Shown piece after piece: positions 2,799 through 42,318 of a stretch of 64,000 nucleotides of DNA (its first letter is position 1; the number at the start of each line of letters is the position of its first letter). Under the pieces are notes generated by a model. The model ran no database searches and had not been told where the DNA came from. It saw nothing but the letters and a program-made list of their open reading frames with translations. This stretch comes from Dehalococcoidia bacterium (GTDB taxonomy: Bacteria > Chloroflexota > Dehalococcoidia > UBA2979). Both the position numbers and the translations under genes were made by a program. The stretch lies in assembly GCA_020845735.1 (NCBI GenBank), contig JADLFF010000017.1, positions 8,704 to 72,703 of the forward strand. Direction: 5' to 3'.

Positions 2799-3224
2799 CT
2801 AGAAGGGCAGGTCATCCGGTTCGATGTCGCCCTCGGCGTCCGCACCGACGGGAAGCCCCGCCGAGTAGCGACCGCCGCCCCCTCCGCCACCACCGCCGTC
2901 GCGGCCGCCGAGGAACTTCACTTCCTGGGCGATCAACTCGGTGGTGTACCGCTTCTGGCCGTCCTGACCCTCCCACGAGCGGGTCTGCATGCGCCCCTCG
3001 ACGTAGACCAGGCGGCCCTTGCTGAGGTACTGGCTGCACGTCTCCGCGAGGCGGTTCCAGGTGACCACGCGGAACCACTCTGTCTCTTCGCGGCGCTCGC
3101 CGTCGGGACCCTGGAACTGGCGCGACGTGGCGACGTTGAAGGTCGTCACCGCGTTGCCATTCGCCGTGTATCGCATCTCGGGATCAGCGCCGAGGTGGCC
3201 GATCACCATCGCCTTGTTCAGCAT
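2799..3224 (-). CDS. ssb: single-stranded DNA-binding protein
   Basis: OB-fold SSB sequence MVIGHLGADPEMRYT..., Gly-rich linker (run of about 9 Gly) and C-terminal acidic DDLPF tail. AGGAG RBS 11 nt upstream of the ATG. Confidence 0.9.
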   Translation of the reverse strand: MLNKAMVIGHLGADPEMRYTANGNAVTTFNVATSRQFQGPDGERREETEWFRVVTWNRLAETCSQYLSKGRLVYVEGRMQTRSWEGQDGQKRYTTELIAQEVKFLGGRDGGGGGGGGGRYSAGLPVGADAEGDIEPDDLPF

Positions 3225-3274
3225 CGTCGTGCCACTCCTGCGCCGGTGCGCGGCGCATCGGGGAGAGTGTCGAG

Positions 3275-3808
3275 TTAGTCCGCGTCGGCCGGGGCAGGCT
3301 CGGCGGCCGCCTCGGCAGACGACTCGGTCGCGGGCTCCGGCGCGGCCTCTGCCGTCGCCTCGGGAGCTGCCTCCGCCACGGACTCCGAGGCCGCCGCTGC
3401 TACGGGAGCCTCGACTGGCGCCACGGGAGCCCTGAACTCGGCGCGCTCCGTCGGCACGGGGCGCGGCGCGAAGCGAGGGCGCTCGCTCGTGAACTCGGGC
3501 GGAGCCTCATCGCTGCCCATGATGCCACGAATCACCATGTGCCGGATCACGTCCTCCTGGATGTGCAGCGCTCGGTCGAGCGCGACCGCCGCTGCGGCGG
3601 GCATCCGGAGCCGGGCGATCACGTACGTGCCATCGAGGTTGTGCGCGATGGGGTACGCCATGCGTCGGCGCCCCCAGGTGCGGGAGCTCAGCACCTCGCC
3701 GCCACCGGACGTCACCTGCCCGGCGAGCCACGTGCCAAGCTGCTCGACCTCGGCGGGGCCGCGTCGAGGCGTGACGATGTAAATCAACTCGTATTCGTTC
3801 ATGTCCAT
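3275..3808 (-). CDS. rpsF: 30S ribosomal protein S6 with about 80-aa Ala/Pro/Glu-rich acidic C-terminal extension
   Basis: MDMNEYELIYIVTP...RLRMP core typical of S6. Start set at M104 of the ORF (ATG 3808, GAGGG-like RBS). The long N-terminal ORF extension is Arg/Pro-rich read-through. Confidence 0.85.
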   Translation of the reverse strand: MDMNEYELIYIVTPRRGPAEVEQLGTWLAGQVTSGGGEVLSSRTWGRRRMAYPIAHNLDGTYVIARLRMPAAAAVALDRALHIQEDVIRHMVIRGIMGSDEAPPEFTSERPRFAPRPVPTERAEFRAPVAPVEAPVAAAASESVAEAAPEATAEAAPEPATESSAEAAAEPAPADAD

Positions 3809-8076: not shown

Positions 8077-9036
8077 CTACGCGCGGACAGCGACGTGACG
8101 CGCCACGGGCTCGACCACGCCGTTGGGGAGGAGCTCGTTGACATCTCCCCGATGACAGAGCGCCGTCCCGGGGGCCATGCACACCGCAGCACCCACCGCC
8201 GAGGCGAGGCGAAGCGACTCCGCCCAGCCGCGCTCCTGCCGAAGTCCCAGCAGCAGCCCCGCGAGGAAGCCATCGCCTGCCCCGACCGCGGAGTCCACGG
8301 TGACGAGGGGTGGCATCGCGCGAAACTCGCCCTCTGGGGTCACCGCGACGGCGCCCTCGCCGCCACGCGTGATCACGGCGCTGTCGATGCCCATGCGCCG
8401 CACCGCGCGCGCGCCATCGAGGGCCTTCTCCTCGGAGCTGCAGTCGCGATGGAGCAGGCGACCGAGCTCGTGGTCGTTCATCTTGAGGATCGTGGGCTGC
8501 GCGCCAAGGGCGAACACCTGCTCTACGACCGGGCCATCCGCATCGAGGACGGACATGGCACCGAGCGCCTGCACGCGACCAAGCGCTTCCGCGTGGAAGG
8601 TGACCTCCATCCCCGGAGGCATCGAGCCGGCGAACACGAGGCAGGTGTCGCGCCGGATCCGTCGATGCAGGTGCCGGCTCAGGCGGTCGATCGCCTCGGG
8701 CGGCACGACGGGCCCGGGTGCCGCGAGCACCGTGCTCTGGTGCACGGAGCGGTCGAGGATATTGATGTTGGTACGCGTCTCGCCGGGGTAGGGGATGAAG
8801 TCGCAGCCGATGCCCTCGTCGGTGAGCTGCTCCTCGATCATCCCGCCGAAGCGTCCCGGAGCGAACCCCATCGCGAGGGGTTCGTAGCCCAGCTCCTTGA
8901 GCACGCGGGCCACGTTGACGCCCTTGCCGCCGATGTCGCGGCGGATGGCGACCACCCGATTCGTATCGGCGGTCACCAGCCGATCGACCTCGACCGTCTC
9001 ATCAACAGCGGGGTTGAGCGTGATAGTGATGATCAT
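8077..9036 (-). CDS. PfkB-family sugar kinase (1-phosphofructokinase / tagatose-6-phosphate kinase-like)
   Basis: MIITITLNPAVD...GGKGVNVA N-terminus and C-terminal DSAVGAGDGFLAGLL motif typical of FruK/LacC ribokinase-superfamily kinases. Confidence 0.75.
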   Translation of the reverse strand: MIITITLNPAVDETVEVDRLVTADTNRVVAIRRDIGGKGVNVARVLKELGYEPLAMGFAPGRFGGMIEEQLTDEGIGCDFIPYPGETRTNINILDRSVHQSTVLAAPGPVVPPEAIDRLSRHLHRRIRRDTCLVFAGSMPPGMEVTFHAEALGRVQALGAMSVLDADGPVVEQVFALGAQPTILKMNDHELGRLLHRDCSSEEKALDGARAVRRMGIDSAVITRGGEGAVAVTPEGEFRAMPPLVTVDSAVGAGDGFLAGLLLGLRQERGWAESLRLASAVGAAVCMAPGTALCHRGDVNELLPNGVVEPVARHVAVRA

Positions 9037-34052: not shown

Positions 34053-34487
34053 TCAATCGACCACCTCGATCGGCTCTTCCTCGATGACGCCGCCCATGCG
34101 GATGTGGAAGGCGCGCACTGCGGGTGGGTCGTACTTCAGCGACACGAGCACGTAGTACGTCTCGGGGAACATCGGCTCGTTGTCGATCTCACCGGGAGGC
34201 CAGAAGGCCATGCGCACGTCGGTGGGTGACGGGTACGCCTCGGATGCCACGTGCGAGTGGTAGATGGCGAAGAGGGACTCGCCCTCGTCCTCGCGACGGC
34301 GGTCCAGCTTCAGCATCTGCAGCGGGTTCATCTCGTAGCGAAACGGGCTGGCGGCGTCGTTCTTCACGCGGATCGCCTCGAAGGCCACGCCGTCACGAGC
34401 ATGGACCATGCCGCACGCCTCGTTGGGTAGGTCCTGGTGAGCGTGGGAAACCATCGCCTCGATCACCGATGAGGGGATGCGCGGCAT
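34053..34487 (-). CDS. JAMM/MPN+ metalloprotease (Mec+/CysO-cysteine peptidase-like)
   Basis: JAMM motif E...HSHVASEAYPSPTD. Start at ATG 34487 with a GAGG RBS. Confidence 0.75.
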   Translation of the reverse strand: MPRIPSSVIEAMVSHAHQDLPNEACGMVHARDGVAFEAIRVKNDAASPFRYEMNPLQMLKLDRRREDEGESLFAIYHSHVASEAYPSPTDVRMAFWPPGEIDNEPMFPETYYVLVSLKYDPPAVRAFHIRMGGVIEEEPIEVVD

Positions 34488-34518
34488 CAGCGACCTCGCC
34501 CGGACGCGCGGGAGTCGA

Positions 34519-34905
34519 TCACGTCCACGCCTCGGGTTCCCCGTCGTCGACGCACGCACCGGCGGAGAGCCGCATCTGTAGGAACGCGGGACTCACGGGG
34601 CGGGCGAGCAGGTGGTCGATCCAGTGCGCCCACTCGTCCTCTGGAAGCCGGTCGACGAGGTCCTGGAACGGCACGTGCAGCGAGCCATCCGGGGCAATGC
34701 CCACATCGAGTGACCAGCGACCCGTGAGGGTGACGCGCCCGACGGAGCGCGTCCGCAGTAGCTGCGCACCCTCGATGGCGCGGTATCGAGCGATCACCGC
34801 GCCATCGAAGTACACATGGAGATTCGAGGCATCGCGGGTCGTGAGGGCACGACGCAGCACGGACTGCTGCAGCACCTTCGTCGCGCGGGCGTCGCTGCTG
34901 ACCAT
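34519..34905 (-). CDS. hypothetical protein
   Basis: ORF with protein-like composition between the rhodanese and the JAMM protease. No family recognised. Confidence 0.4.
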   Translation of the reverse strand: MVSSDARATKVLQQSVLRRALTTRDASNLHVYFDGAVIARYRAIEGAQLLRTRSVGRVTLTGRWSLDVGIAPDGSLHVPFQDLVDRLPEDEWAHWIDHLLARPVSPAFLQMRLSAGACVDDGEPEAWT

Positions 34906-34917
34906 GGTGGGGACTCG

Positions 34918-35742
34918 TTACTTCTCGATCGGCACGTCGATCATGGAGCCGTACTCGGTCCACGAGCCGTCGTAGTTCTTCACATCGTTGTTGCCGAGCA
35001 GGTACTTGAGGACGAACCACGTGTGGCTCGAGCGCTCGCCGATGCGGCAGTAGGCCGTCACCGGCTCGTTGACCTTGATCCCGGCGCCCTCGTAGAGCGC
35101 GCGGAGCTCGTCCTGCGTCTTGAACGTGCCGTCCTCGTTGACCGCGCGCGCCCAGGGGATGTTGCGCGCACCGGGGATGTGGCCCGCGCGCTGGGCGGTC
35201 TCCGTCATACCCGGGGGCGCGATGATCTCGCCGCTGAACTCGGCGGGACTGCGCACATCGACCAGTTGCCGTCCGCCGTGGCGGGCGATCTCGATGACCT
35301 CGTCGCGCCGTGCGCGCAGCGCCTGGTTGGGCGCCTGTGCCTTGTACGTCGCGGGCGCCACCGAGGGCACATCGGTGACCGTCGGGCGGTTGTCGGCGAG
35401 CCACTTCACGCGCCCACCGTCCATCAACGACACGTTCTCGTGCCCGTACAGCTCGAGGAGCCACAGCGCATAGGCAGCGAACCAGTTGTTGTTGTCGCCG
35501 TAGAGCACCACGTGCGTGTCGTTGGACACCCCCGAGGCGCTCAGCAGCTCCTCGACGCCCTCGCGGGTGAGGATGTCGCGACGCTGCGCGTCCTGCAGCT
35601 GCGTCGTCCAGTTCCACGCGATCGCGCCCTCGACGTGGCCCTCGGCGTAGGCCGACGTGTCCACGTCAACCTCGACGAGGCGAACGCCGGGCTCGTCCTT
35701 GTGCTGCGCGACCCAGTCCGCGCTCACCAGCTTGTCAACCAT
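34918..35742 (-). CDS. thiosulfate/3-mercaptopyruvate sulfurtransferase (tandem rhodanese domains)
   Basis: Two rhodanese domains with the catalytic Cys loop CRIGERSSH in the second. Confidence 0.8.
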   Translation of the reverse strand: MVDKLVSADWVAQHKDEPGVRLVEVDVDTSAYAEGHVEGAIAWNWTTQLQDAQRRDILTREGVEELLSASGVSNDTHVVLYGDNNNWFAAYALWLLELYGHENVSLMDGGRVKWLADNRPTVTDVPSVAPATYKAQAPNQALRARRDEVIEIARHGGRQLVDVRSPAEFSGEIIAPPGMTETAQRAGHIPGARNIPWARAVNEDGTFKTQDELRALYEGAGIKVNEPVTAYCRIGERSSHTWFVLKYLLGNNDVKNYDGSWTEYGSMIDVPIEK

Positions 35743-35818
35743 GTCGTCCCCCCGATCCGCTCAGCATCCGTTGGCCCCGGCACGTGACAGCGTACAGATT
35801 CGACCGCGCTTCGCGGCC

Positions 35819-36787
35819 TCACCACCACAGCTTGTCGGCGACGTCTTCCTCGATCGTGGCGTAGTCCGTCGTCCAGAGGTGCGAGGACAGGTACTTCCAG
35901 CCACCGTCCGCCAGCAGGCAGACGACGTGCCCCTCCTCGATGCGTTCCGCGAGCCGCTGCGCCGCACGCACGACCGCGCCTCCCGAGATGCCCGCGAAGA
36001 TGCCGGTGCGCTGCGTGAGCTCGCGCGTGACACGGAACGACGTGGCCGAATCGACCACGATCCGCCCATCGAGGACCGACTCGTCGAGGACTGGCGGGAT
36101 GTACCCCTCCTCGAGACTGCGCAGGCCCTGCACCTGGTCGCCGGGATGCGGCGCCGCCGCGATGATGCGCACGCCGGGGCGCTCCTCCTTGAGGCGCCGC
36201 CCGGTCCCGGTGAGCGTCCCGCCGGTACCCAGCCCGGCCACGAAGTGCGTCACCTCGGGCAGGTCCGCGAGGATCTCGGGCGCCGTGGTGTAGTAGTGAG
36301 CGCTCGGGTTCTGCGGGTTCTCGTACTGGAACGGCATGAACCAGTCCGGGTGCTGCGCGGCCACCTCGCGCGCCAGTGCCACCGAGCCGTTCGTCCCGAG
36401 GTCGCCCGGCGAGTAGATGATCTCCGCGCCGAACGCCTGCAGGAGCTCAGTGCGCTCCGGGCTCACCGCATCCGGCATGACGACCTTGACCGGGTACCCC
36501 TTGAGCCGCCCGACGAGGGCGAGCGCGATCCCGGTGTTCCCGGAGGTCGGCTCAAGGATGGTCTGGCCGGGTTGCAGGCGCCCCTCCCGCTCGGCCGCCT
36601 CGATCATGAACTTCGCGATCCGGTCCTTGACGGACCCCGTCGGGTTCTGCCCCTCGAGCTTGGCGTAGAGGCGCACGCCCGGCTTCGGCGAGAGCTCGGA
36701 GATCTCGACGAGTGGCGTGTTGCCGACCATGTCCAGGACTGAGCGGTAGCGCACGGAACGCGTGGCCCCGCTATGCGCCGCCGGCAA
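35819..36787 (-). CDS. cysM: PLP-dependent cysteine synthase, CysM-type (thiocarboxylate-dependent O-phosphoserine sulfhydrylase-like)
   Basis: GNTPLVEI...NPTGSVKDR...TSGNTGIALA motifs. Sits immediately downstream of the CysO-like carrier. Start may be the internal GTG near 36754 rather than 36787 (17-nt overlap with cysO). Confidence 0.75.
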   Translation of the reverse strand: MPAAHSGATRSVRYRSVLDMVGNTPLVEISELSPKPGVRLYAKLEGQNPTGSVKDRIAKFMIEAAEREGRLQPGQTILEPTSGNTGIALALVGRLKGYPVKVVMPDAVSPERTELLQAFGAEIIYSPGDLGTNGSVALAREVAAQHPDWFMPFQYENPQNPSAHYYTTAPEILADLPEVTHFVAGLGTGGTLTGTGRRLKEERPGVRIIAAAPHPGDQVQGLRSLEEGYIPPVLDESVLDGRIVVDSATSFRVTRELTQRTGIFAGISGGAVVRAAQRLAERIEEGHVVCLLADGGWKYLSSHLWTTDYATIEEDVADKLWW

Positions 36788-37049
36788 GCGCCGGCAGGAT
36801 GGACACCTCGTCGCCGTCGGTCAGCTCGGTGTCGGCGCCCTTCAGGTAGCGGATGTCCTCGTCGTTCAGGTAGATGTTGACGAATCGATGCAGCACGCCC
36901 TGCTCATCGGCGAGCTGCTCCCGGAAGCCCGGATAACGCGAGTCGATGTTCGAGATGAGCTCGCCGATCGTGCGCCCCTCGCTGGTGAACGCACGCTGGT
37001 TGTCGACGACCTTTTGAATCACCGAGGTGACAAGGACCTTCACCGGCAC
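36771..37049 (-). CDS. cysO: ThiS/MoaD-family sulfur-carrier protein, CysO-like (C-terminus ...ALAGGA)
   Basis: 92-aa beta-grasp protein ending in Gly-Gly plus one Ala, adjacent to CysM. Confidence 0.7.
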   Translation of the reverse strand: MPVKVLVTSVIQKVVDNQRAFTSEGRTIGELISNIDSRYPGFREQLADEQGVLHRFVNIYLNDEDIRYLKGADTELTDGDEVSILPALAGGA

Positions 37050-37124
37050 GCTGTCGTCCTTCCATCGATGCCGCGGCCGCGCAGCCGCGGCCCGTCAACC
37101 GCACGCAGAGCTGGAGGTGCGAGG

Positions 37125-38240
37125 CTAGTCGCCCACGGCCTCCAGCATGAGCGGCGGGGTGCCGCAGAACTGGTCGTAGTCGATGAGCTCGTTCACCGTC
37201 GGGTTGTCACCGCAGAGGGGGCACGCCGGGTCGCGGCGGATGCGCATCGTGCGGAACTCCATCGTGAGGGCATCGACGAGCAGGAGCCGGCCGACGAGCG
37301 GCTCGCCGATCTCGAGGACCTGCTTGAAGACCTCGGTGGCCTGGATGGAGCCGATGATCCCCGTGATCGCGCCAAGCACGCCGGCCTCGGCGCACGAGGG
37401 CACCAGCCCCGGGGGAGGCGGCGAGGGGTAGAGGCAGCGGTAGCAGCCCTGGCCGGGCTTGTAGACCGTCGCCTGCCCGTCGAAGAGCAGGATCGAGCCG
37501 TCGACCAGCGTCTTGCCGAGCAGGTAGGCGGCGTCGTTGACGAGATAGCGGGTCGCGAAGTTGTCCGCGCCGTTCACGATGATGTCGTAGTCCCGGATGA
37601 TCTCCATCGCGTTGTCCGAGGTGATCGGCATCTCGTGGAGGCGGACATTCACCCCCGGGTTGTACGCGTTGAGCGTCTCCTGGGCGGACAGGGCCTTGCG
37701 CTTCCCGACATCGGCAGTCTGGTGCAGCAGCTGCCGCTGGAGGTTCGAGAGGTCGACCGTGTCGAACTCGACGATCCCGACTGTGCCCACACCCGCCAGC
37801 GCGAGGTAGATCGCCACCGGGGAGCCCAGCCCGCCGGCACCGATGATCAGGACCTTCGCGGCCTTGAGCTTGCGCTGCCCGACCGGCCCCACCTGGCCCA
37901 TGATGATGTGGCGCGAGTAGCGCATGACCTCGTCGGCGGAGAGCGCCTGCGAGGCAACACCGTCGGAACCACCCGCGAGCGCTGGGATTACCGCCACCTG
38001 GTCACCGTCCTCGACCTGCGTGTCCACGCCCGACAGGTCGTGGATCTCCTGGTTGTTCACGTAGATGTTGATGTGCCTCGGCACGCGGCGGTCACTGTCG
38101 TAGACCAGCATGTCGAAGCCCGGGTACTGGGCGTTCACCGCGTCGAGGACCTCGCTGATGTTGCGGCCCTCGACGCTGACGTACTCGCGGTTCGCCGTAA
38201 GGCGGCGGAACGGCGAGGGAATGTAGACGCTCACCGCCAC
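37125..38240 (-). CDS. fusion protein: N-terminal ThiS/MoaD-like beta-grasp domain (ends ...ALAGG-SDG) joined to MoeB/ThiF-type E1 adenylyltransferase with C-terminal CxxC...CxxC zinc site
   Basis: Residues 1-91 resemble the neighbouring CysO (VSVEGRNISEVLDAVNAQYPGF...VAVIPALAGG). Residues 110-371 show E1 motifs (RYSRHI, LIIGAGGLGS, CYRC, CPLCG). Confidence 0.75.
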   Translation of the reverse strand: MAVSVYIPSPFRRLTANREYVSVEGRNISEVLDAVNAQYPGFDMLVYDSDRRVPRHINIYVNNQEIHDLSGVDTQVEDGDQVAVIPALAGGSDGVASQALSADEVMRYSRHIIMGQVGPVGQRKLKAAKVLIIGAGGLGSPVAIYLALAGVGTVGIVEFDTVDLSNLQRQLLHQTADVGKRKALSAQETLNAYNPGVNVRLHEMPITSDNAMEIIRDYDIIVNGADNFATRYLVNDAAYLLGKTLVDGSILLFDGQATVYKPGQGCYRCLYPSPPPPGLVPSCAEAGVLGAITGIIGSIQATEVFKQVLEIGEPLVGRLLLVDALTMEFRTMRIRRDPACPLCGDNPTVNELIDYDQFCGTPPLMLEAVGD

Positions 38241-38340
38241 CCTGGTGTCCTCTCGCTGACCGCTCCCGCGAGCGGCTCCGTTACGTCCGATTGTGCCAAT
38301 ACGAGCCGCTTCACGCTCGTGAGTGCTGCGCGCTCGCGGG

Positions 38341-39285
<945 letters not shown>

Positions 39286-39324
39286 GCCTTCCCGAACGCC
39301 GTCTCCCAGTGCGAGACGTTCAGC

Positions 39325-39771
39325 CTAGATCGAGTAGTTCGCCTGCCGCGACTGCAGTCGCTCGCGTTCGCGCGCCGCGAGGTCCGCGATCGACACTGCG
39401 GTGAGCCGCCGTCGCGTCTCGTCGTAGATGTCCCGCCAGACCCACTGCTGCCCACAGAGGACGTTGTGCTCGTGGTCGTCCGCTTCGTCCTCGAGACAGG
39501 CGAGCGGGGCGAGCGACCCCTCCAGGCTCTCGAGGGCGTGCAGGAGACACATCTCCTCGGCGGGACGGGCCAGCTCATGTCCCCCGCCGGGGCCCCTGGT
39601 GCTGCGCACGAAGCCATCGCGTCGGAGCTGGGCCAGCAGGTGATCGAGATACGACTCGGGGATCTGCTGCCGGCGCGCGATCTCGGATCGCTGCACCGGA
39701 CCGTCGCCTCCGTAGATCGCGAGGTCGATCAGCGCGCGTACACCGTAATCACCCTTGGTACTGAGTCGCAT
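39325..39771 (-). CDS. Rrf2-family transcriptional regulator (CymR/IscR-like)
   Basis: MRLSTKGDYGVRALIDLA HTH N-terminus typical of Rrf2; Cys residues in the C-terminal half. Confidence 0.8.
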   Translation of the reverse strand: MRLSTKGDYGVRALIDLAIYGGDGPVQRSEIARRQQIPESYLDHLLAQLRRDGFVRSTRGPGGGHELARPAEEMCLLHALESLEGSLAPLACLEDEADDHEHNVLCGQQWVWRDIYDETRRRLTAVSIADLAARERERLQSRQANYSI

Positions 39772-39794
39772 CATGCTGCGAACCCCGGCTGCCA

Positions 39795-39822
39795 TATTCT
39801 CGACTAACTTTGTCGAGTATAG
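39795..39822 (-). promoter_or_regulatory. palindromic operator candidate TATACTCGAC-N7-GTCGAGAATA overlapping a TATACT -10 box, about 25 nt upstream of the Rrf2 gene
   Basis: Seen directly. The arrangement resembles IscR/CymR-type inverted-repeat sites and suggests autoregulation. Confidence 0.4.
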
Positions 39823-39877
39823 CACCGTCTTCCGCGCGGAATGCTAGTCCCGATCACCCGACCGGCCCCCGAGTGGA

Positions 39878-40435
39878 CTACCCGCGCGACCCCTCGCGAG
39901 CACGGATCTCGACGAGCGCCCGCAGCGCCTGAGGTGACGCGTCGGGGAGATCGTCGAACGCCGACTGCAACGGCTGCGCTGCGATTTCGGACGTGGTGGG
40001 GCCATTGGGCTCGACCCGGGCGCCGGGTGGGATCGCACTCGCCGAGCCGGTCACGAAGCAGACGGTGGCTGCCGCCGTATCGAGGGCAAGCACCTGCTCG
40101 GGCCACCAGGCGAGGCGGGACGCCTTCGTTTGCAGCCCCTGTGTCAGCTGCACGCCAAACGCCGGGTCGATGGGGCCCAGCGGATACTCGCGGCAGACTC
40201 TGGAGACGCGGTCCCAGTTCGGATCGGACTTCGCCGAGCGCAGCGCGTCACGCAGTGCTCGTGCGGAATCGACGGCAGCCGACACCTCGCGAACCGTGGC
40301 TTCGACGTCTGCCTCGGAGGTGACCGCCGAGCCGGACACGGGTGGCACGGGCGTCGGCGACACCGCCACGCCGGAGGTCCCAGCGCAGCCGGCGAGCAGC
40401 GCCGCAAGACAGACCAGGACCTTCCCGAGTGTCAC
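39878..40435 (-). CDS. putative lipoprotein (signal peptide + LAGC lipobox), unknown function
   Basis: MTLGKVLVCLAALLAGCAG... N-terminus. Lies between the ThiS-like gene and the Rrf2 gene. Confidence 0.5.
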   Translation of the reverse strand: MTLGKVLVCLAALLAGCAGTSGVAVSPTPVPPVSGSAVTSEADVEATVREVSAAVDSARALRDALRSAKSDPNWDRVSRVCREYPLGPIDPAFGVQLTQGLQTKASRLAWWPEQVLALDTAAATVCFVTGSASAIPPGARVEPNGPTTSEIAAQPLQSAFDDLPDASPQALRALVEIRAREGSRG

Positions 40436-40486
40436 CCACGCCCTCGCGCATCCATGCAGAGCGGCACCTCGACTGGACGTCGCGGG

Positions 40487-40765
40487 TCAGACGCCTCCGG
40501 CGACCGCCGGCACGATCGACACCTCGTCGCCCGCCTTGAGGTCGGTCGACAGCCCCTGGAGGAAGCGCACGTCCTCGCCGTTCACGTAGATGTTGACGAA
40601 GCGACGCAGCTCGCCGGTGTCATCGCACAGCCGCTCGCGCATGCCGGGGAACTCGCTCTCGAGGTTGGCCACCAGGTCCTGCAGGGTACCGGCCTCGGTG
40701 CTCACGGTGTCGCGGTTGAGCGTGAGCGCGCGGAGGGGTGTGGGGATCTTCACAGTCACGGGCAT
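40487..40765 (-). CDS. ThiS/MoaD-family sulfur-carrier protein (C-terminus ...AVAGGV)
   Basis: 92 aa, paralogous to CysO (same FVNIY...GDEVSI..A.AGG pattern). Confidence 0.65.
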   Translation of the reverse strand: MPVTVKIPTPLRALTLNRDTVSTEAGTLQDLVANLESEFPGMRERLCDDTGELRRFVNIYVNGEDVRFLQGLSTDLKAGDEVSIVPAVAGGV

Positions 40766-40814
40766 CTTGCGTTGCTTTCCTTAGGCTCGATTGGCGGCGG
40801 GTGGCGTCCGAGGG

Positions 40815-41060
40815 CTACCCGCCCTCGACGACATCTCCCGCCAGGGAGTCGATCCGCACGCCGAGCTCCTCGGCCCAGTGCAGACTCCGGTCGATCTCGG
40901 ACGGATCCCCCTCCAGCTCGAGGATGACCCAGCCCACCTGCTCGTCGACATCCGCCATCCGGATGTTGGTGACCACCTTGAACTCGTGCCCCAGCCGGTA
41001 GATCACCGGCTCCGTGATGAGCTGGGGCTCGAACGTCAGTCGCACTCGCTTCTTGGCCAT
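40815..41060 (-). CDS. 81-aa NIL-domain-like small protein ending in -Gly-Gly, candidate sulfur carrier (MetO-like) coupled to the ThrC-like gene
   Basis: MAKKRVRLTFEPQLITEPVIYRLGHEFKVVTNIRMADVDEQVGWVILELEG...DVVEGG. Its start codon lies 1 nt after the stop of the upstream ThrC-like gene. Confidence 0.55.
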   Translation of the reverse strand: MAKKRVRLTFEPQLITEPVIYRLGHEFKVVTNIRMADVDEQVGWVILELEGDPSEIDRSLHWAEELGVRIDSLAGDVVEGG

Positions 41061-41061
41061 G

Positions 41062-42318
41062 TCAGGCACCCACTCCCGCCGGAACACGTGCGTTGCGCGC
41101 GCGCAGCGCCTCGTCGAAGGCTGCCGACCGCGCCGGGATGTGAATCGGCTCGTCCATCGAGTCGAGGACCGCCTCGACGGTCTTGAGTCCGGCGCCCGTG
41201 ATGAAGGCGACCGTCTCCTCGTTCGGGTTGATGGCGCCACTCGCGACGAGCTTCTTCAGGCAGGCGACGGTGACCCCACCCGCGGTCTCCGCGAAGATGC
41301 CCTCGGTCTCTGCGAGGAGGTAGATGCCCTCGACGATCTCCTCGTCGGTGGCCATCTCCGCGCCACCACCGGTCTCGTCCATCACCTTCAGCGCGTAGTA
41401 GCCGTCCGCCGGATTCCCGATGGCGAGCGACCTCGCGATGGTGTTCGGCTTCTGCGGCACGAAGTTGAACGTGTGATTCTGGAAGGCGGTGGCGATCGGC
41501 GAGCAGCCGCTGGCCTGCGCCCCCGACATCCGCGTGTGGGGCTCGTCGATCAGTCCCACCTTGTGGAGCTCCTGGAAGCCCTTCCAGATCTTCGTGAAGA
41601 GCGACCCGGAGGCCATCGGCGCCACGACGTGCTGAGGCGCGCGCCACCCGAGTTGCTCCGCCACCTCGTACGCGAGCGTGCGCGAGCCCTCGGCGTAGTA
41701 GGGGCGCACGTTGATGTTCACGAACGCCCAGTTGTGGTCCGCTGCCACCTCGGTGCACAGCCGGTTCACGTCGTCGTACGACCCCTCGATCATGACGAGC
41801 GTCGGGCGGTACACGCCGCTCCCGACGACCTTCCCCTGCTCGAGGTCATCGGGGATGAACACGTAGGCGTCCATCCCGGCGGCCGCGGCATGCGCGGAGA
41901 CGGAGTTCGCGAGGTTGCCCGTGCTCGCGCAGGCAATGGCCTCGAACCCGAACTGCCGCGCGCGGGCAATTGCCACGGAGACGACTCGATCCTTGAACGA
42001 CCACGTCGGGTTGACCGTGTCGTTCTTGATCCAGAGCTGCTTGAGGCCCACCGCGCGGGCGAGGCGTTTCGCATCGATCAGCGGCGTGTACCCCGTGCCG
42101 ATGTCCACCTTGTAGGCGGGATCGCAGGGGAGGAGGTCGGCGTATCGCCACAGCGTCGAGGGACCGGCCTCGATCCGGTCACGCGAGATGGACTCGCGGA
42201 TGCCGTCGTAGTCGTAGGCCACCTCGAGGGGACCGAAACAGAACTCGCATGAGAAGACGGGCGCGAGATCGTACTCGCGGCCACACTCCCGGCAGCGCAG
42301 CGCTCGTTCGAACGACAT
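41062..42318 (-). CDS. threonine synthase-family PLP enzyme with N-terminal Cys4 zinc ribbon (MetM-like candidate O-phosphohomoserine-dependent homocysteine synthase)
   Basis: Fold-type II PLP enzyme (SFKDR lysine motif) with a ThrC-like C-terminal half. CRECG...CEFC zinc ribbon. Preceded by a SAM-I riboswitch. Confidence 0.8.
   Translation of the reverse strand: MSFERALRCRECGREYDLAPVFSCEFCFGPLEVAYDYDGIRESISRDRIEAGPSTLWRYADLLPCDPAYKVDIGTGYTPLIDAKRLARAVGLKQLWIKNDTVNPTWSFKDRVVSVAIARARQFGFEAIACASTGNLANSVSAHAAAAGMDAYVFIPDDLEQGKVVGSGVYRPTLVMIEGSYDDVNRLCTEVAADHNWAFVNINVRPYYAEGSRTLAYEVAEQLGWRAPQHVVAPMASGSLFTKIWKGFQELHKVGLIDEPHTRMSGAQASGCSPIATAFQNHTFNFVPQKPNTIARSLAIGNPADGYYALKVMDETGGGAEMATDEEIVEGIYLLAETEGIFAETAGGVTVACLKKLVASGAINPNEETVAFITGAGLKTVEAVLDSMDEPIHIPARSAAFDEALRARNARVPAGVGA

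Follow-up and report, generated by a model that had tools for sequence, protein, structure and literature searches.

A putative CysO-type carrier precursor encoded in frame with its own MoeB/ThiF-type E1 in a sulfur-amino-acid locus of a Dehalococcoidia bacterium

In the stretch of DNA analysed here (the window; 64,000 nucleotides of contig JADLFF010000017.1 from a Dehalococcoidia bacterium, positions 8,704 to 72,703), the minus-strand open reading frame (ORF) 37125-38240 is uninterrupted and encodes on one chain of 371 amino acids a sulfur-carrier domain, a linker and an E1 activating enzyme. The question that this locus raises is how a carrier that is made as a part of its own E1 can become activated. 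The E1s of the MoeB/ThiF family adenylate the free carboxylate of the terminal glycine of their carrier, and in the protein as encoded this glycine (G91) is peptide-bonded to S92. The original prediction had put forward two possible answers to this question, viz. release of the carrier by a neighbouring JAMM protease or its activation in cis. As the E1 needs a free C-terminal carboxylate, an uncleaved carrier cannot, on chemical grounds, be activated in cis and this part of the prediction has to be given up, whereas the release by JAMM receives comparative support from the invariant GG, from the split orthologs and from loci in which the fused domain is the sole carrier. Based on these observations, we consider it quite probable that the gene product is a carrier precursor, which would be freed after its GG by the JAMM of the operon and then adenylated and thiocarboxylated.

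The identities of the two halves of the fusion are as the original prediction had described them. The ORF begins with a GTG start at 38240, which is preceded 8 nt upstream by a GAGG sequence, and it terminates with the stop codon at 37125-37127. Residues 1-91 (37968-38240, minus strand) form a beta-grasp domain of the ThiS/MoaD/CysO type, which is matched over residues 7-91 by the Pfam family ThiS (PF02597; E 1.2e-11, 45.4 bits compared to a gathering score of 22.5) and in the Protein Data Bank (PDB) by CysO carriers (4n6e_B at 8.7e-13 and M. tuberculosis CysO, 3dwg_C, at 2e-11). Its tail, AVIPALAGG, comprises residues 83-91, with the GG codons located at 37968-37973, and the domain is a bona fide member of the ThiS/CysO family with a canonical tail. 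It is followed by the linker SDGVASQ (residues 92-98; 37947-37967), where the predicted JAMM cut lies between G91 and S92, and then by the adenylyltransferase domain (residues 99-371; 37125-37946), so that the junction reads AVIPALAGG-SDGVASQ-ALSADEVMRYSRH. Within the E1 half, the Pfam family ThiF (PF00899) covers 237 of its 238 model positions over residues 108-341 (E 4.5e-79), and residues 100-344 match E. coli MoeB (1jw9_B) at 1.5e-52. The four cysteines of its zinc site, which form two CxxC pairs (C266/C269 and C340/C343), are invariant in the 27 homologs that were aligned to assess residue conservation, and so are the ATP loop GAGGLG (G134-G139), the residues D160, R169, K182 and D226, and the loop cysteine C283. 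In the alignment with 1jw9_B, the last of these corresponds to the cysteine of the T-C-VEAGV motif of MoeB, which we take to be the residue numbered Cys187. No rhodanese domain was detected on the 371-residue fusion by Pfam, and its score with the NCBIfam model for MoeZ is 372 compared to a cut-off of 647. By its domain content, the E1 half is a complete MoeB/ThiF-type enzyme, which falls outside the MoeZ/Uba4/MOCS3 (E1 plus rhodanese) subfamily because the C-terminal rhodanese domain is absent.

In an AlphaFold2 model (predicted template modelling score 0.63), both the carrier and the E1 are folded. The carrier shows predicted local distance difference test (pLDDT) values of 75-91, and residues 87-99, with values below 50, form a disordered junction and linker. 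A Foldseek search with this model re-identified only MoeB/ThiF proteins (template modelling score of 0.84 to MoeB). The formation of a separate E1 from an internal start was also considered and rejected: the sole in-frame ATG near the junction, corresponding to M106, lies inside the conserved N-terminal helix of the E1, and this position is occupied by T, E, D, N, L or Q in many homologs.

The fusion in the window could also have resulted from an assembly or sequencing indel joining separate genes for the carrier and the E1. The close relatives with split genes lend some credence to this explanation, as it takes just one indel in the GC-rich linker to pass from either form to the other. However, of the 120 best protein homologs, all but one (119/120; 69-93% identity, from metagenome-assembled genomes of Chloroflexota/Dehalococcoidia) bear both Pfam domains, and the fusion is intact in 77 of the 80 best genomic loci at the species level. 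Further, in the homolog P0001 (93% identical; 15 member sequences) the two domains are likewise joined in frame by a linker of equal length, and the junction differs by three substitutions. Additionally, the split forms have an ATGA/GTGA overlap and a start codon there, neither of which the fusion in the window has. In view of this replication of the fusion across independent sequences, a frameshift artefact is rejected and we regard it as extremely improbable. In a locus scan that included one genome per species and used the carrier-plus-junction segment as the query, the same carrier-E1 architecture was found in at least 566 species-level genomes, which answers in the affirmative the original suggestion that it should be sought in databases. 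Proteins of this kind are already annotated by JGI as adenylyltransferase plus converting-factor small subunit.

The part of the fusion that would constitute the carrier terminus is particularly well conserved. The tail AVIPA-x-AGG is invariant in the 27 aligned homologs, and the GG at the junction is present in 80/80 loci. In contrast to this tail, the linker in the relatives is low-complexity and varies in length from 0 (AGG|QVLTEEQVNRYSRH) to 39 residues. The mean pairwise identity of the fused carrier in 62 loci is 0.606 versus 0.616 for the adjacent free CysO; the fused domain is as constrained as its free-standing neighbour. Ten of the loci (viz. L025, L030, L033, L034, L037, L039, L040, L048, L055 and L061) form one clade of fusions, in which a conserved basic motif, (P)RKRIGALT, precedes the E1 helix and where no JAMM gene is located within 10 kb.

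A search carried out with the fused carrier domain alone retrieved about 100 clusters of free-standing ThiS proteins, which are 92-104 amino acids long, 67-91% identical to it and end in PALAGG plus 2-6 residues. The loci encoding them are syntenic with the window, they are seen in many samples, and some of them are on contigs of 0.8-2.6 Mb. The gene order in them is Rrf2-CysK-ThiS (93 aa)-ThiF (288-307 aa)-CysO-CysM-(rhodanese or Lactamase_B)-JAB-folP-folK, while L087-L089 contain, in addition, an unknown 134-aa gene ahead of JAB. In the split operons, the stop codon of the carrier overlaps the start codon of the E1 as ATGA (GTGA in L041), at the place that corresponds to the linker of the fusion, and the Ala-Gly-Gly codons double as the GGAGG Shine-Dalgarno sequence of the E1 gene (overlaps at 6240-6330 in L087/L089, 6240-6330 in L090/L092 and about 10240-10375 in L041). 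In a neighbour-joining tree of the E1 cores, the split forms branch at several separate positions within the fused clade, and the nearest genomic relative of the window, L041, whose E1 shows 95.5% identity, is itself split. Hence, one indel in the linker is enough to switch between the two states, which appear to be functionally equivalent, and the fusion is, as far as these comparisons indicate, widespread and ordinary in Chloroflexota, with its fused or split state flipping between close relatives. Due to this toggling and synteny, the fused domain is to be regarded as the orthologous counterpart of a free-standing carrier precursor, whose own C-terminus has to be trimmed. The original prediction, which had counted a stop or frameshift between the two domains against its interpretation, is in this regard borne out for the in-frame fusion by the replication in homologs; the separation by a stop or frameshift is the natural state of close relatives, and this supports the carrier interpretation rather than refuting it.

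Two other features of the split forms were noted. Some split carriers (P0306, P0333 and L068 at 2911-3275) contain a tandem duplication of the tail (…AVIPALAGGSEIPALAGGSGAK; three copies in L068), which creates two or three candidate GG cleavage sites. As P0306 represents 31 member sequences, its duplicated tail is probably real. In the marine split operons L090-L092, a protein with the metallo-beta-lactamase fold (PF00753; 8730-9575) is found at the position that is occupied by the rhodanese in the window.

According to the proposed mechanism, the CysO-type carrier would be synthesised at the N-terminus of its own E1, the fused gene being the form that a translationally coupled pair of carrier and E1 genes takes when the two are in frame. 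The JAMM/MPN+ metalloprotease of the operon would cut post-translationally after Gly91 (GG|S), and would also strip the single extra residue from the free carriers of the locus (GG-A and GG-V). The products of the cut would be a carrier of 91 residues, with the carboxylate of its Gly-Gly end now free, and a separate and fully competent MoeB-type E1, which with ATP would adenylate the C-terminus of the carrier. Sulfur, probably supplied by a separate rhodanese, would then turn the adenylated carrier into a thiocarboxylate, and this in turn would give its sulfur to a pyridoxal phosphate (PLP) enzyme of the cysteine/methionine locus (CysM-type, and possibly others).

The fusion is also found beyond its close relatives. 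Of the 150 best representatives at 50% identity, 17 align from the carrier domain onward, and 16 of these 17 contain the junction GG. Among these distant representatives are ThiS-ThiF-Rhodanese proteins of 470-516 aa, i.e. with a ubiquitin-like domain (Ubl), an E1 and a rhodanese (Rhd) (P0122, P0124, P0126, P0149), and one JAB-Ubl-ThiF-Rhodanese protein of 619 aa; the names of the clusters point to Gemmatimonadales, Evtepia (Clostridia) and Pseudomonas. Three gene contexts are seen for them, viz. Rrf2-PALP-JAB-(Ubl-E1-Rhd), JAB-(Ubl-E1-Rhd)-SrpI-like, in which the JAB stop overlaps the start of the fusion, and (JAB-Ubl-E1-Rhd)-PALP. In the six loci L081-L086, no other carrier ORF was found by a sensitive carrier profile, and the fused Ubl is their only detectable carrier, with PALP and/or JAB genes as neighbours that either share an overlap with it or form part of the fusion. 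Closer to the window, the order in L062 and L074 is MetM-NIL-MetO-(Ubl-E1)-CysM, which is followed by JAMM in L062 (the contig of L074 ends within CysM). The CysM of these two loci is 63% identical to that of the window and no free CysO is present there, which makes the fused domain, judging from gene content, the only candidate carrier for this CysM.

Some of these sole-carrier loci have additional noteworthy arrangements. In L081 (8001-10799; Pseudomonas sp., WP_457339519.1), a single 619-aa JAB-Ubl-E1-rhodanese protein combines the protease, carrier, E1 and sulfurtransferase on one chain, with an EamA transporter before it and a cysteine-synthase-like PALP gene after it; its Ubl segment has no Pfam match, yet it aligns with the query and ends in LLATSGG. 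The Clostridia-type contigs L082-L084 contain JAB (4-nt overlap)-(ThiS-ThiF-Rhodanese)-SrpI-like-FtrD-like genes without a free carrier, and genes for a cysteine desulfurase and a PP-loop ATPase (ATP_bind_3) adjoin them; they may represent a different thiolation pathway using a fused carrier.

In the window, all of the genes in the region 34053-42318 are on the minus strand and form a sulfur-amino-acid locus, after which folP, folK and purine genes follow. No thi genes were found by Pfam annotation of the neighbours in the Rrf2-CysK-...-CysM-JAMM context of the window. The first part of the locus, as transcribed, begins with a MetM-like threonine-synthase (ThrC) homolog (41062-42318; PALP 2.4e-67 and thrC-like NCBIfam matches), a candidate thiocarboxylate-dependent homocysteine synthase, and is continued by a small NIL-domain protein (40815-41060; Pfam NIL 8.5e-15) and by a MetO-like free carrier of 92 aa ending in AVAGG-V (40487-40765; Pfam ThiS 2.2e-18), which in the related loci always comes after the ThrC-like/NIL pair. 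Together, the ThrC homolog, the NIL protein and the GG-V carrier (40487-42318, minus strand) resemble a MetM/MetO-like homocysteine module. A NIL protein at this place, flanked by enzyme and carrier, is a conserved feature of related loci and lies outside the published MetM/MetO description that was consulted. At the head of the operon is a conserved Rrf2-family regulator of the CymR/IscR-like type (39325-39825; Pfam Rrf2 1.7e-33 and the NCBIfam rrf2 superfamily), followed by a cysteine synthase A, CysK (38341-39285), which is immediately upstream of the fusion here and is its conserved upstream neighbour in related loci. This protein exceeds the cut-off of the NCBIfam cysK equivalog (435.6 bits versus 350.95) and shows PDB matches to CysK at 1e-112.

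Downstream of the fusion, the second part of the locus comprises a CysO-like free carrier of 92 aa ending in ALAGG-A (36771-37049; Pfam ThiS 1.3e-15), which is found directly after the E1 in nearly all related loci, and a CysM-type, O-phosphoserine sulfhydrylase-like cysteine synthase (35819-36787), which has its best PDB match in M. tuberculosis CysM (3dki/3dwg, 1.6e-92) and scores below the cut-offs of the NCBIfam cysK/cysM equivalogs. The next gene codes for a two-domain rhodanese (34918-35742; Pfam Rhodanese 3.2e-32, 2 stretches), which weakly matches the model for 3-mercaptopyruvate sulfurtransferase and is the probable persulfide donor for the rhodanese-less E1. The 128-aa protein that follows it (34519-34905) has no Pfam or NCBIfam match. 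Many related loci, as well as the split operons L087-L089 (134 aa, no Pfam match there), have it at the same position, and it is an uncharacterised, conserved component of the operon. The last gene encodes the Mec-like JAMM/MPN+ metalloprotease (34053-34487; Prok-JAB 1.4e-18; PDB 2kks and PfJAMM1 5lda). As originally predicted, it is a neighbour of the fusion, at a distance of about 2.6 kb downstream and in the same orientation, and its motif E...HSHx7SxxD, as read in translation, is intact. The three carriers of the window align without gaps with 36-46% identity (38% and 36% between the fused domain and the two free ones). Since both of the free carriers (36771-37049 and 40487-40765) carry one residue past their GG, their C-termini have to be trimmed as well. 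The CysO proteins of related loci end either exactly at GG or up to about 12 residues after it, and no clear correlation is seen between the residues past GG in free CysO and the presence of JAMM in the locus, many JAMM loci having a CysO that ends at GG.

Several observations weigh against the release of the carrier by JAMM. The support for cleavage is comparative throughout, and the AlphaFold2 model carries no docking information and has low confidence in the linker. Among the related loci with at least 6 kb of downstream sequence, JAMM is present in 37/58 and is lacking within the fetched flanks in the other 21/58; downstream of CysM in two of the JAMM-less loci, a search for an alternative protease found only unrelated genes. 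In addition, CysM and the MetM-like enzyme each have an adjacent free carrier, which leaves the third carrier without an evident client, and the sole-carrier contigs are short (3-16 kb), so that a free carrier is possible elsewhere in those genomes. With regard to the client of the third carrier, the conserved adjacency of CysK and the fused carrier is suggestive. A rival explanation is that the beta-grasp domain is never removed and serves as a permanent accessory of the E1, for example as a dock or scaffold for CysM, CysK or the rhodanese or as a pseudo-substrate in cis that controls how the free carriers gain access, with the free carriers carrying out all sulfur transfer. Canonical E1s do contain permanent ubiquitin-fold domains, free carriers already adjoin both of the thiocarboxylate-type clients in the window, and the 21/58 loci without a nearby JAMM are to be expected under this explanation. 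However, a permanent accessory would not need an invariant PA-x-AGG tail, whose GG is retained in all 80 loci and in distant phyla. Its orthologs also exist as free 93-aa proteins that toggle with the fused state among close relatives, and in some loci the fused domain is the sole carrier. We therefore regard a permanent accessory role as unlikely, while giving it some weight.

It may also be considered that the uncleaved carrier keeps the E1 inactive or occupied in cis, in a zymogen-like manner, and that JAMM licenses the whole thiocarboxylate-dependent cysteine/methionine system, in which case the fusion would not simply be a neutral form of the coupled genes. The third carrier, once freed, would in this case serve an unrecognised client, for which the adjacent, always co-located 'CysK' or a role in protein conjugation are candidates. 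We view this possibility as rather doubtful. A further rival is that the released carrier is mainly a ubiquitin-like modifier rather than a sulfur donor, which is conjugated to lysines of target proteins in the manner of SAMP/TtuB and is also deconjugated by JAMM. In favour of this, the E1 retains the loop cysteine C283, the JAMM weakly matches a desampylase model, and dual roles are described for SAMP1 and TtuB (in archaea and Thermus, respectively). The NCBIfam scores for SAMP1 (52.9 bits compared to a cut-off of 60) and for the SAMP-activating E1 UbaA (316.9 compared to 450) point in the same direction; however, every SAMP-related score is below its curated cut-off. The fusion is also surrounded wholly by genes of cysteine/methionine biosynthesis, headed by an Rrf2 regulator and without any E2/E3-like genes, and in compact loci the fused carrier directly precedes CysM. 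A principal function as a modifier is thus very unlikely, and release of the carrier for thiocarboxylation is the interpretation that is followed below.

If the proposed processing is correct, then the proteins that are now uniformly annotated as 'molybdopterin-synthase adenylyltransferase MoeB' are carrier-plus-E1 precursors, which belong to a cysteine/methionine thiocarboxylate pathway widespread in Chloroflexota, and tools for pathway reconstruction would miss a carrier that is hidden inside an E1. The pairs of fused and split forms, with E1s that are 95% identical, would provide a ready control for JAMM-dependent maturation, which has been shown only for carrier-MoaE fusions, and the locus would present a bacterial parallel to the synthesis of ubiquitin as a fusion precursor. 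However, it will be incorrect to interpret the fusion as revealing a new kind of chemistry. Ubl-E1 fusions and the release of carriers by JAMM are already known, and the fusion in the window belongs to a well-populated further case of them. The finding is mechanistically unsurprising, although the toggling between fused and split forms is useful as a natural experiment. The description of either mechanism as 'mechanistically unusual' in the original prediction was accordingly overstated, in view of the experimental precedent for JAMM release from MoaD-MoaE fusions and of the earlier reports of Ubl-E1 fusions.

Of the known systems, the fusions of the MoaX type provide a precedent for the predicted cut. 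M. tuberculosis MoaX undergoes a cut at Gly82|Ser83, without which it has no activity (PMC4326299), DRJAMM of D. radiodurans cleaves the MoaD-MoaE fusion DR2607 (PMC8832034), and HvJAMM1 of H. volcanii cleaves a linear SAMP1-MoaE fusion (PMC4443979). Similar to the protein from the window, these fusions contain an N-terminal carrier whose GG is joined to its partner, and the junction is GG|S in both MoaX and the window. They are cut by JAMM/MPN+ proteases and the cut is required for their activity; the window has a JAMM whose metal-site motif is intact in the sequence. However, the partner in the window is a ThiF-family E1 rather than MoaE, the sulfur-accepting subunit of the synthase, and no experimental processing of any carrier-E1 fusion was found in the literature. 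Fusions of the Ubl-E1 kind have themselves been described earlier (PMC1779556; PMC2948915). Iyer, Burroughs and Aravind (2006) reported Ubl-ThiF fusions of epsilon-proteobacteria and Firmicutes with a second, solo ThiS in the operon; these belong to thiamine operons, and the Ubl in them was described as 'distinct from ThiS' and presumed to have a different role. Makarova and Koonin (2010) described a Ubl-E1-TBP of Thaumarchaeota that is 'shared with bacteria'. The fusions of Iyer et al. resemble the present one in having an N-terminal Ubl on ThiF and a solo ThiS-like gene in the operon, but the window fusion is in a cysteine/methionine operon with a JAMM, and its domain passes the Pfam ThiS threshold and has a canonical tail. 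The eukaryotic ubiquitin precursors (Ub-eL40, Ub-eS31 and polyubiquitin) are similarly N-terminal fusions released after GG; however, as their proteases, partners and function differ, this is an analogy only.

The protein-thiocarboxylate route of M. tuberculosis, which also comprises Mec+ and CysM, resembles the window in its CysO-family carrier, in the CysM ortholog, in an operonic JAMM and in a MoeB-family E1. In that organism, MoeZR acts with CysO in cysteine synthesis (PMC3227635). In contrast to this route, the E1 of the window lacks the C-terminal rhodanese, which is a separate gene, and has an N-terminal CysO-like domain, and the window contains three carriers instead of one, along with a MetM/MetO-type module and a true CysK. 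For Streptomyces, a MetM/MetO/Mec/MoeZ thiocarboxylate pathway to homocysteine is outlined in a preprint (GapMind 2026, citing Hasebe 2024), according to which Mec (JAMM) matures the MetO carrier and an E1 is needed. The combination of a ThrC homolog with a small carrier is common to both, and the region 40487-42318 of the window fits the same layout; the window differs from it by an additional NIL protein, whose gene separates those of the enzyme and the carrier, and by an E1 that is fused and rhodanese-less. By analogy with these systems, the locus in the window would work like the CysO/CysM/Mec/MoeZ system of M. tuberculosis combined with a MetM/MetO module.

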